The notes beneath the pieces are model-generated. The model was given only the letters and a program-made list of their open reading frames with translations. It was not told the origin of the DNA and did no database searches. The translations under genes were made by a program, and so were the position numbers. This document shows, in pieces, positions 4,660 to 4,969 of a DNA stretch of 20,580 bases (position 1 is its first letter; each line of letters starts with the position of its first letter). Source of the stretch: a virus (lineage: Duplodnaviria; Heunggongvirae; Uroviricota; Caudoviricetes); the IMG/VR virus record IMGVR_UViG_2737471827_000003, positions 1 to 20,580 of that record; one strand, 5' to 3'.

Positions 4660-4735
4660 GGCCCTTTAGCTCAGAGGTGAGAGCGAGCGACTCATAATCG
4701 CCAGGTCGCTGGTTCAAATCCAGCAAGGGCCACCA
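4660..4735 (+). tRNA. tRNA-Ile2-like (anticodon CAU, presumably lysidine-modified; formally Met by anticodon)
   Basis: Cloverleaf folded by hand: acceptor GGCCCTT/AAGGGCC, anticodon loop CTCATAA, T-loop TTCAAAT, encoded CCA. Overall strongly resembles E. coli ileX-type tRNA (recalled from memory). Confidence 0.75.
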
Positions 4736-4736
4736 A

Positions 4737-4813
4737 CCGCCACTAGCTCATCAGGAAAGAGCGTCAACCCTTTAAGTTGAGTGTGCGAGGTTCGAGTCCC
4801 CGGTGGCGGTCCA
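4737..4813 (+). tRNA. tRNA, isotype uncertain (anticodon loop CCUUUAA; nominal anticodon UUU, but C at position 33 is atypical)
   Basis: Acceptor CCGCCAC/GTGGCGG, D-stem GCTC/GAGC, anticodon stem TCAAC/GTTGA, T-loop TTCGAGT, encoded CCA; 77 nt. One A:C mismatch in the T-stem. Confidence 0.6.
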
Positions 4814-4815
4814 GT

Positions 4816-4891
4816 GCCGACTTAGCTCAGTAGGTAGAGCAACTGACTTGTAATCAGTAGGTCACCAGTTCGATTCCGGTAGTCGGCACCA
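4816..4891 (+). tRNA. tRNA-Thr (anticodon UGU), thrU-like
   Basis: Acceptor GCCGACT/AGTCGGC, anticodon stem ACTGA/TCAGT with loop CTTGTAA, T-loop TTCGATT, encoded CCA. Appears to match the host thrU sequence as I recall it. Confidence 0.75.
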
Positions 4892-4894
4892 TAT

Positions 4895-4969
4895 GCGGGC
4901 ATCGTATAATGGCTATTACCTCAGCCTTCCAAGCTGATGATGCGGGTTCGATTCCCGCTGCCCGCTCCA
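4895..4969 (+). tRNA. tRNA-Gly (anticodon UCC), glyT-like
   Basis: Acceptor GCGGGCA/TGCCCGC, short D-arm (TATAATGG), anticodon stem TCAGC/GCTGA with loop CTTCCAA, T-loop TTCGATT, encoded CCA. Appears to match E. coli glyT as I recall it. Confidence 0.8.

Follow-up and report, generated by a model that had tools for sequence, protein, structure and literature searches.

A mosaic tRNA cassette downstream of Q in a lambdoid prophage, with host-identical Thr and Gly genes and a Lys(UUU) anticodon on an argN scaffold

The viral sequence analyzed here (positions 1 to 20,580 of IMG/VR record IMGVR_UViG_2737471827_000003, hereafter the window) covers the late part of a lambdoid E. coli prophage whose head genes are of the HK97 type, and carries a cassette of four transfer RNA (tRNA) genes, Ile2(CAU)-Lys(UUU)-Thr(UGU)-Gly(UCC), downstream of the Q gene. 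This cassette is a common, already annotated member of the tRNA cassettes that follow Q in lambdoid phages and a mosaic relative of the ileZ-argN-argO module of Shiga toxin (Stx) phages, which was seen at the equivalent position in the Stx2a phage Stx2a_F349 (AP012530). Plain supply of scarce isoacceptors appears to be the most likely role of the cassette, a reading to which we give roughly an even chance. The only unusual element is the second gene, an argN scaffold with a switched anticodon and C33, which suggests a testable idea of counter-defense; given the weak conservation of this gene, the idea is a lead and not a result.

Identity and origin of the four tRNA genes

The four genes, all on the plus strand, are the only tRNAs found by ARAGORN in the window: tRNA1 (4660-4735, anticodon CAU), tRNA2 (4737-4813, anticodon UUU), tRNA3 (4816-4891, anticodon UGU) and tRNA4 (4895-4969, anticodon UCC). 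Membership in the tRNA family was defined by a score above the gathering score of Rfam RF00005 (29 bits) together with a cloverleaf from an independent tRNA finder, and all four genes belong to the family by this definition, with scores of 70.6, 44.4, 73.8 and 64.9 bits, respectively, the low score of tRNA2 being attributable to an A51.C63 mismatch in the T-stem and to the unusual C33. The spacers A, GT and TAT, of 1, 2 and 3 nt, respectively, separate the genes, each of which has an encoded CCA at its 3' end. Among related phages, sequence similarity stops directly 3' of the CCA of tRNA4, and therefore the tRNAs behave as a cassette. Folding of single tRNAs by minimum free energy (MFE) did not return the cloverleaf for tRNA2 or argN, as is often the case with unmodified tRNA sequences, and the structures were taken from the covariance model and ARAGORN instead.

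These results agree, far beyond chance, with an earlier sequence-only reading of this stretch, which had described a tightly packed cluster with encoded CCA at these coordinates and a repertoire unlike the Ile-Arg-Arg set that Stx phages carry downstream of Q, and had proposed a tRNA finder as the check. Of its isotypes, Ile2-like, Thr(UGU) and Gly(UCC) stand, whereas the second gene, which it had left uncertain, proved to be Lys(UUU) on an argN scaffold. The identity of the Thr and Gly genes with host genes had been overlooked.

tRNA1 is an orthologue of Stx-phage ileZ, from which it differs by a single base in the D-loop (75/76 identical positions), and is less similar to K-12 ileY (69/76) and ileX (67/76). 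Its acceptor stem, GGCCCUU/AAGGGCC, is the same as that of ileY, and the GGCCC start is common to ileX and ileY. The determinants of TilS, which converts the CAU anticodon to the lysidine form that reads AUA, are reportedly the acceptor pairs C4-G69 and C5-G68 (Ikeuchi et al. 2005), and tRNA1 combines both pairs with the CAU anticodon and the likeness to ileX and ileY. It is of the Ile2 type by sequence, with lysidine at position 34 and charging with isoleucine predicted. The label on identical genomic copies given by the Prokaryotic Genome Annotation Pipeline (PGAP) is tRNA-Ile, and the ARAGORN call 'Met' is only a literal reading of CAU.

tRNA3 is identical to K-12 thrU over 76/76 positions and tRNA4 to K-12 glyT over 75/75; in both cases the identity is confined to the mature tRNA and the flanks are unrelated. 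Given this complete identity, the two tRNAs are certain to suit the synthetases and modification enzymes of the host. In K-12, thrU and glyT are members of one operon, thrU-tyrU-glyT-thrT-tufB. The TAT spacer between tRNA3 and tRNA4 (4892-4894) corresponds to the base after thrU and the two bases before glyT in K-12, and would fit the capture of a single host operon followed by the precise loss of tyrU and the spacers, although a match of three nucleotides is weak evidence for this order of events. Half of the cassette consists of exact copies of genes from one host operon, which makes it a clean example of host tRNA capture by a temperate phage, and the cassette places two exact repeats (75-76 bp) of the thrU-glyT locus in the chromosome. 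Among variants of the tRNA-Gly gene, a compensatory change from C6-G67 to U6-A67 is found in 10 copies.

The anticodon loop of tRNA2 is the 7-nt CCUUUAA (C32-C33-U34-U35-U36-A37-A38), closed by a perfect 5-bp Watson-Crick stem; identical genomic copies are labeled tRNA-Lys by PGAP, and ARAGORN agrees. A suppressor or another isotype was also considered and rejected, as the UUA (ochre) register needs two mismatched closing pairs. The body is that of Stx-phage argN(UCG), to which tRNA2 is identical in 65/77 positions, compared with 47/77 for host lysT, so that by kinship it does not group with the host tRNA-Lys. The C1-G72 start, U73 and the T-stem mismatch A51.C63 are common to tRNA2 and argN, and 6 of the 12 differences between them fall within the 17-nt anticodon arm. 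In the loop these are U33C, C35U and G36U, and in the stem a compensatory change from G30-C40 to A30-U40 and the replacement of U27.G43 by U27-A43.

Compared with E. coli tRNA-Lys, tRNA2 has the UUU anticodon but carries U73 and C33 in place of A73 and U33, both of which are present in host lysT and in the tRNA-Lys of phage T5. U33 is found also in argN and thrU and is, to our knowledge, close to universal in tRNAs, and the discriminator A73 is an identity element of lysyl-tRNA synthetase (LysRS). Given U73 and C33, we infer lysine charging from the anticodon alone. Among the matches listed, C33 is present in 113/113 Lys-type copies, and the anticodon loop is unchanging except for position 32, which varies between C, U and A. 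Across 10 variants of the scaffold no stem substitution departs from standard pairing (95.2% of cells paired; one change is double and nine are one-sided), which is weak support because most of the 3' part was set by the pattern used for retrieval and C-to-U changes opposite G allow pairing in any case. The common variants of tRNA2 carry either a 1-nt deletion in the D-stem or C8 together with U4 and U11; both are left unannotated by PGAP, and such related variants look decayed.

Three further observations concern the scaffold. A G3.U70 wobble, which is the major identity element of alanyl-tRNA synthetase, occurs in argN of Stx2a_F349 (locus L002, 3143-3219) and in the Lys-type gene of the PPompW prophage of Shiga toxin-producing E. 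coli (STEC) strains (LC567822; locus L003, 3132-3207), while the corresponding pair in tRNA2 is G3-C70. The anticodon arm of argN (L002, 3169-3185, TCAGCCTTCGAAGCTGG) is identical in 15/17 positions to that of tRNA4 and glyT (4921-4937 of the window, TCAGCCTTCCAAGCTGA), the remaining tRNA bodies being unrelated; this likeness may be due to chance or may be a trace of arm exchange. Finally, a third paralogue of the argN scaffold, 82 nt in length, with the same acceptor and T arms (CCGTCAC...GGTTCGAGTCCCCGGTGACGGTCCA) and an aberrant anticodon region, which ARAGORN reads as Val(aac), lies approximately 900 nt downstream of tRNA-Gly in at least four IMG/VR loci (L016 1469-1550, L027 3739-3820, L115 1425-1506 and L123 2935-3016, minus strand) and is absent from the window.

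Codon usage, diversity and the role of the cassette

Codon usage was compared between 17 late genes of the window (4,493 codons) and 82 K-12 genes (28,103 codons). In the late genes, GGA is enriched 2.73x (p=1e-11), ACA 1.99x (p=8e-5) and AUA 1.62x (p=0.055), and the ratios for GGG, ACG and AAG are 1.92x, 1.62x and 1.45x, respectively. The suggestion of the sequence-only reading that the cassette supplements rare codons holds up for GGA and ACA, for which enrichment and not its absence was found, is weak for AUA, and does not hold up with respect to specificity, the enrichment being generic to rare codons.

For each of Ile2(CAU), Thr(UGU) and Gly(UCC) the host has no more than one or two genes, and a supply role is plausible for these three tRNAs. 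Extra copies would be transcribed with the late operon and, in the lysogen, probably also from a promoter of the cassette itself, for which a sigma-70 promoter-like site on the plus strand (4622-4650, TTGCAA-17 nt-TATTAT, ending 9 nt before tRNA1) is the candidate. They would raise the decoding of AUA, ACA/ACG and GGA/GGG, codons that late genes use 1.6-2.7x more than host core genes, and the benefit would be generic to phage DNA rich in rare codons, with a repertoire that is not tuned to this particular phage. The cassette retains the Stx promoter-like sequence and ileZ, with a derivative of the argN scaffold bearing UUU in second position and thrU and glyT in place of argO. The analysis shows the identities and homologies of the genes, their context, codon counts, distribution and diversity; that they are transcribed, processed and charged, and any gain in fitness, we infer. 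The maintenance of the cassette in approximately 9% of the complete E. coli genomes and the occurrence of the same three anticodons in phage T4 are counted in favor of supply. tRNA2 falls outside the logic of supply. Its cloverleaf is intact in the window, but the gene is weakly constrained across the family, and it is either a dispensable argN derivative or a structurally foreign Lys decoder.

The sequence diversity of the cassette was estimated as per-site pi in a sample of 27 full-length homologous regions and the window. tRNA1 is the most conserved of the four genes (0.0027), followed by tRNA3 (0.0077), tRNA4 (0.0134) and tRNA2 (0.0216, which is an underestimate), compared with 0.0204 in the trailer that follows tRNA4 and 0.043 in the upstream flank; tRNA1, tRNA3 and tRNA4 are 1.5-7x less diverse than the trailer. 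The promoter-like site itself has a diversity of 0.010 as against 0.043 directly upstream, and the stretch over it is invariant in the window, Stx2a_F349 and PPompW, the sequences farther upstream being divergent.

Several observations weigh against a functional cassette that supplies what the phage needs. The main codon of tRNA2, AAA, is not enriched in the late genes (0.98x), and the top enrichment is that of AGG (9.6x), AGA (6.5x) and CGG (3.4x), none of which is read by the cassette. In a cross-phage control with the small sample of four late regions, the frequency of ACA per 1000 codons is 10.9 in the window, 11.5 in phage vB_EcoM-606R7 (hereafter 606R7), which has the same cassette, and 13.7 in the Stx2a phage with the Ile-Arg-Arg set; the respective values are 16.7, 15.3 and 15.1 for GGA and 12.7, 10.7 and 9.8 for AGA and AGG combined. 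The variability of tRNA2 matches that of the non-coding DNA around it, and of 40 evenly spaced genomes with a tRNA2-like sequence, only 19 have it annotated as tRNA-Lys. The promoter-like site matches the consensus in 9/12 positions, and approximately one such match is expected by chance in the scanned region. A search of the accessible literature for data on expression, charging or phenotype of the cassette found none.

Under an alternative reading, possible in our view although of low probability, the cassette serves counter-defense: its tRNAs would replace host tRNAs cut by the defense nucleases of competing P2/P4-type elements and restriction-linked systems (AriB of PARIS, P2 Old, and PrrC and RloC), with tRNA2 as a Lys(UUU) decoder on a foreign body that the nucleases do not recognize and the extra ThrU topping up the other prime target. 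Two of the four anticodons in the cassette, Lys(UUU) and Thr(UGU), are those of prime nuclease targets, which is a suggestive coincidence, and, AAA not being enriched, the Lys gene is not explained by supply. In a library screen, most phage tRNAs with the right anticodon rescued nuclease toxicity. The determinants of AriB have been mapped to U36-A-A-U39-C40|A41 and U16, such that cleavage is lost with U39A and impaired with A41C or U16C (Belukhina et al.), and the T5 escape tRNA-Lys(UUU), which neutralizes PARIS, carries all three substitutions, U39A, A41C and U16C (PMC11464382, PMC12409363). In P2-lambda interference, killing by P2 Old is due mainly to the removal of the anticodon arm from tRNA-ThrU(UGU) (Govande et al. 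2025, PMC12445682; PMC12409363), and its signature consists of paired CNG triplets at positions 28-30 and 40-42 and A37 (PMC12445682).

At these positions tRNA2 reads U36-A-A-G39-U40-U41, with C16, CAA/UUG instead of CNG/CNG, and C33; the CAG/CUG of argN became CAA/UUG through the compensatory change at 30-40 described above, whereas the paired CNG motifs are present in argN itself, in thrU (tRNA3) and in glyT (tRNA4). The cleavage site of PrrC in tRNA-Lys is 3' of U33, and the C33 at this junction is shared by all Lys-type copies counted above. Like the T5-type evading tRNAs, tRNA2 combines a target anticodon with substituted recognition positions, the match being at the level of sequence. 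By sequence, it is devoid of every mapped determinant of AriB, P2 Old and PrrC, and resistance to these nucleases is predicted.

The same reading meets difficulties in the rest of the cassette. tRNA3 is thrU, the validated target of both AriB and P2 Old, and should itself be cleaved. Phage Thr tRNAs that are resistant rescue P2 Old toxicity, whereas extra host thrU gives little or no protection, and in the rescuing phage tRNA-Thr(UGU) the CNG motif is altered and the anticodon stem shortened (PMC12445682). The anticodon arm of tRNA3, ACUGA-CUUGUAA-UCAGU, keeps CUG/CAG and shows no such alteration. Gly(UCC) and Ile2 are not among the reported targets, the constraint on tRNA2 is no stronger than that on the flanks, and its common D-stem-deletion and C8 variants escape annotation. 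Under the established identity rules, U73 and C33 may make tRNA2 a poor substrate of LysRS and the ribosome.

In a bolder form, about which we are equally tentative, the cassette would be a weapon of phage against phage: an argN scaffold turned into a foreign tRNA-Lys(UUU) and coupled to extra ThrU would allow late translation to survive the Toprim and anticodon nucleases that P2 prophages, P4 satellites and prr loci direct at Lys(UUU) and Thr(UGU). If true, counter-defense by phage tRNAs would extend from large virulent phages (T5, T4) to lambdoid prophages, with a bearing on classical P2-lambda interference and on PARIS; nuclease-proof tRNAs would be obtainable by an anticodon switch on a non-cognate body, and a temperate phage would encode a counter-defense that is expressed from the prophage.

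The diversity data bear also on the possibility that the cassette is a largely neutral passenger, a recombination mosaic at a module junction that consists of captured thrU and glyT from the operon upstream of tufB and of a decaying argN with a drifted anticodon. In agreement with this view, which we consider unlikely, the diversity of tRNA2 equals that of the trailer, variants that look decayed are frequent, the argO copy of PPompW lacks the CCA, the TAT spacer fits host-operon capture with the loss of tyrU, and an IS66-family element is inserted upstream in this copy. It is made less likely by the lower diversity of the three other genes relative to the trailer, by stem substitutions that keep pairing in the scaffold (in one case through a double change) and in tRNA-Gly (the U6-A67 copies), by the fixation of the tRNA2 anticodon loop outside position 32, and by the persistence of the cassette in hundreds of genomes, intact and with unchanged spacers of 1-3 nt.

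Whether the repertoire, with readers of AUA, ACA and GGA instead of AUA, CGA and AGA, is matched to the codon usage of the phage that carries it was addressed by the cross-phage control. In favor of such a match, the late genes use GGA, ACA and, to a weak degree, AUA more than host genes do. However, across the four late regions, phages with Thr and Gly tRNAs use ACA and GGA no more, and AGA and AGG at least as much, as phages with two Arg tRNAs; the tRNAs best matched to this phage would be Arg(UCU/CCU/CCG), and Lys(UUU) is left unexplained. On these four regions, codon co-adaptation was rejected as the cause of the different repertoire, and a tuned repertoire appears distinctly unlikely. The link that the sequence-only reading had drawn between repertoire and supplementation is not supported, as the codon usage of the phage does not explain the repertoire, and we read the replacement of Arg by Thr and Gly genes as mosaicism and not as adaptation to the codons of this phage.

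A role in recoding, in which tRNA-Lys(UUU) and Ile2 would tune a -1 frameshift that yields the long tail-assembly chaperone, is highly improbable: the G-like open reading frame (ORF) does end in GTT AAA AAA AAA TAG (15525-15539) with a T-like ORF (15542-15841) in the -1 frame, a predicted slippery heptamer A AAA AAA made up of lysine codons and a post-slip sequence AAA ATA GCC ATG in which AUA is the second codon of the -1 frame, but A AAA AAG is found also in Stx2a_F349, which has no tRNA-Lys, in PPompW and in 606R7, which leaves no tie to the Lys gene. The lambda-type slippery site GGGAAAG was not found at the chaperone junction of the window. Where these three phages have A AAA AAG, the last slippery codon of the window copy has changed from AAG to AAA.

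Flanking signals and neighboring genes

The gene assignments in the window rest on a comparison with a near-identical prophage that PGAP has annotated. Q (1047-1742) comes after a DUF968-family gene and rusA, and is followed by the tRNAs, a holin gene (starting at 5261), lysozyme, Rz and an HNH gene, and then by terminase, portal, HK97-type protease and capsid, and tail genes. The sequence-only reading was right to place the tRNAs downstream of Q, but had missed a 2.7-kb element between them. This is an IS66-family element of 2,699 bp (1877-4575) with GTAAGCG-type ends, located 84 bp upstream of tRNA1 and flanked by an 8-bp target duplication (GGTGGAGG, at 1869-1876 and 4576-4583). Its minus-strand ORFs of 225, 115 and 523 aa contain the Pfam domains HTH_Tnp_1, TnpB_IS66 and DDE_Tnp_IS66. 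In the near-identical prophage without this interruption, Q ends 210 bp upstream of tRNA1.

A promoter-like site (1726-1754, TTGCAA-17-TATATT) overlaps the last codons of Q and is followed, approximately 50 nt farther, by a terminator-like hairpin (1806-1832) with a 10-bp GC-rich stem and with A and T runs at its sides, such that it is terminator-like on both strands. The two sites probably represent the PR'/tR' arrangement producing a short transcript that is expected in lambdoid phages. The IS66 element is inserted between this Q/PR'/terminator region and the tRNA cassette. Given that 2.7 kb of antisense IS66 sequence lie between the late promoter and the late genes, Q-dependent late expression may be impaired in this copy of the prophage.

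On the other side of the cassette, the plus strand carries a structured trailer (4970-5172) with three perfect hairpins, whose arms, all 100% complementary, lie at 4976-4986/5011-5021 (11 nt), 5029-5042/5087-5100 (14 nt) and 5099-5107/5145-5153 (9 nt). The region 4970-5205 folds with an MFE of -80.9 kcal/mol (z = -5.28). A search of the trailer against Rfam gave no match, and the covariation analysis returned no consensus structure, the alignment having mixed unrelated classes of trailers and the window-type trailers being too similar to each other. In window-type loci the trailer is 92-99.6% conserved, and other phages have unrelated trailers after the same cassette. The trailer may serve RNA processing or stability, or may itself be a small RNA. 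It is followed by an intrinsic-terminator-like site on the plus strand (5173-5201), found by a terminator scan and consisting of a hairpin and a T run approximately 60 nt upstream of the holin gene. This site and the promoter-like site at 4622-4650 bracket the tRNAs, which possibly form an autonomous unit nested in the late operon.

Farther downstream, the junction between Rz and the HNH gene measures approximately 55 bp in the window (6863-6919) and approximately 1.1 kb in the near-identical prophage of strain MMC-J-0105 (locus L001, 10288-11416), where it contains a gene for a GNAT acetyltransferase on the minus strand and a small ORF. The difference in size points to a moron-type insertion or deletion at this junction.

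Distribution of the cassette and comparison with known systems

A scan of IMG/VR with the scaffold identified at least 119 loci, of which at least 88 have the order Ile2-Lys-Thr-Gly, at least 4 more have this order with the extra scaffold paralogue, at least 13 have Ile2-Lys-Arg(UCU) and at least 6 have Ile2-Arg(UCG)-Arg(UCU). Among 5,426 complete E. coli genomes, 498 (the approximately 9% mentioned above) contain at least 80% of the 501-nt cassette region, and 798 contain a tRNA2-like sequence; three deposited phage genomes carry the cassette. A scan of the GTDB representative genomes with the 3' end of the scaffold found only one E. coli and one Shigella flexneri record and no wider family. 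PGAP labels the cassette Ile/Lys/Thr/Gly, and the cassette as such is a matter of routine annotation that public pipelines label correctly. In many genomes, those of STEC among them, PGAP skips the 76-nt D-stem-deletion form and a 96%-identity form of tRNA2 (for example, NZ_CP027331.1, 819663-819738), and the annotation of 606R7 (ON470580.1) omits tRNA2, leaving a gene-sized gap (16843-16925) between tRNA-Met and tRNA-Thr. A literature search on ileZ and argN, this cassette, and lambdoid tRNA-Lys, tRNA-Thr or tRNA-Gly found nothing usable, older subscription papers being outside the search.

Among the closest known systems is the cassette of Stx2a_F349, which has in common with the window the position between Q and the late genes, the orientation, the promoter-like stretch, ileZ, the scaffold of the second gene, and the tight packing with encoded CCA. 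Of the features that define an Stx-type cassette, the window shares the location, the upstream sequence and ileZ, and has neither argN(UCG) nor argO(UCU). The second gene of Stx2a_F349 is argN, with the UCG anticodon, the loop CUUCGAA and U33, as compared with UUU, C33 and a remodeled anticodon stem in the window; its third gene is argO(UCU), in contrast to the exact thrU and glyT copies; and downstream of the cassette lies stx, where the window has the structured trailer and the lysis genes. The PPompW cassette, Ile2(CAU)-Lys(UUU)-Arg(UCU), is an architectural intermediate between the two: it shares with the window ileZ and the Lys-type anticodon arm on the argN scaffold but, unlike the window, still has argO and, as in the Stx cassette, a 13-nt spacer. 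The 1-nt D-stem deletion and G3.U70 are both found in its Lys gene, and this form is unannotated by PGAP in STEC genomes.

Outside the lambdoid phages, the cluster of the virulent phage T4 comprises eight genes (Arg UCU, Ile CAU, Thr UGU, Ser UGA, Pro UGG, Gly UCC, Leu UAA and Gln UUG), which are classically read as a supply for codons rare in E. coli. It has in common with the window the anticodons CAU, UGU and UCC, the adjacency of Ile and Thr, and spacers of a few nucleotides, but lacks a tRNA-Lys, and its genes are diverged from those of the window (Thr 62/76, Gly 63/75 and Ile 52/76 identical positions), where Thr and Gly are host copies. Among the nuclease-evading tRNAs, the P2 Old-resistant phage tRNA-Thr has the same anticodon as tRNA3, and P2 Old acts naturally against a lambdoid phage, whereas tRNA3 has the sequence of the sensitive host thrU. 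The T5 tRNA-Lys is a recognizable tRNA-Lys with G1-C72, A73 and U33, for which both resistance and rescue have been demonstrated, whereas tRNA2, with U73 and C33, is identical to it in 44/78 positions and its resistance is a prediction.

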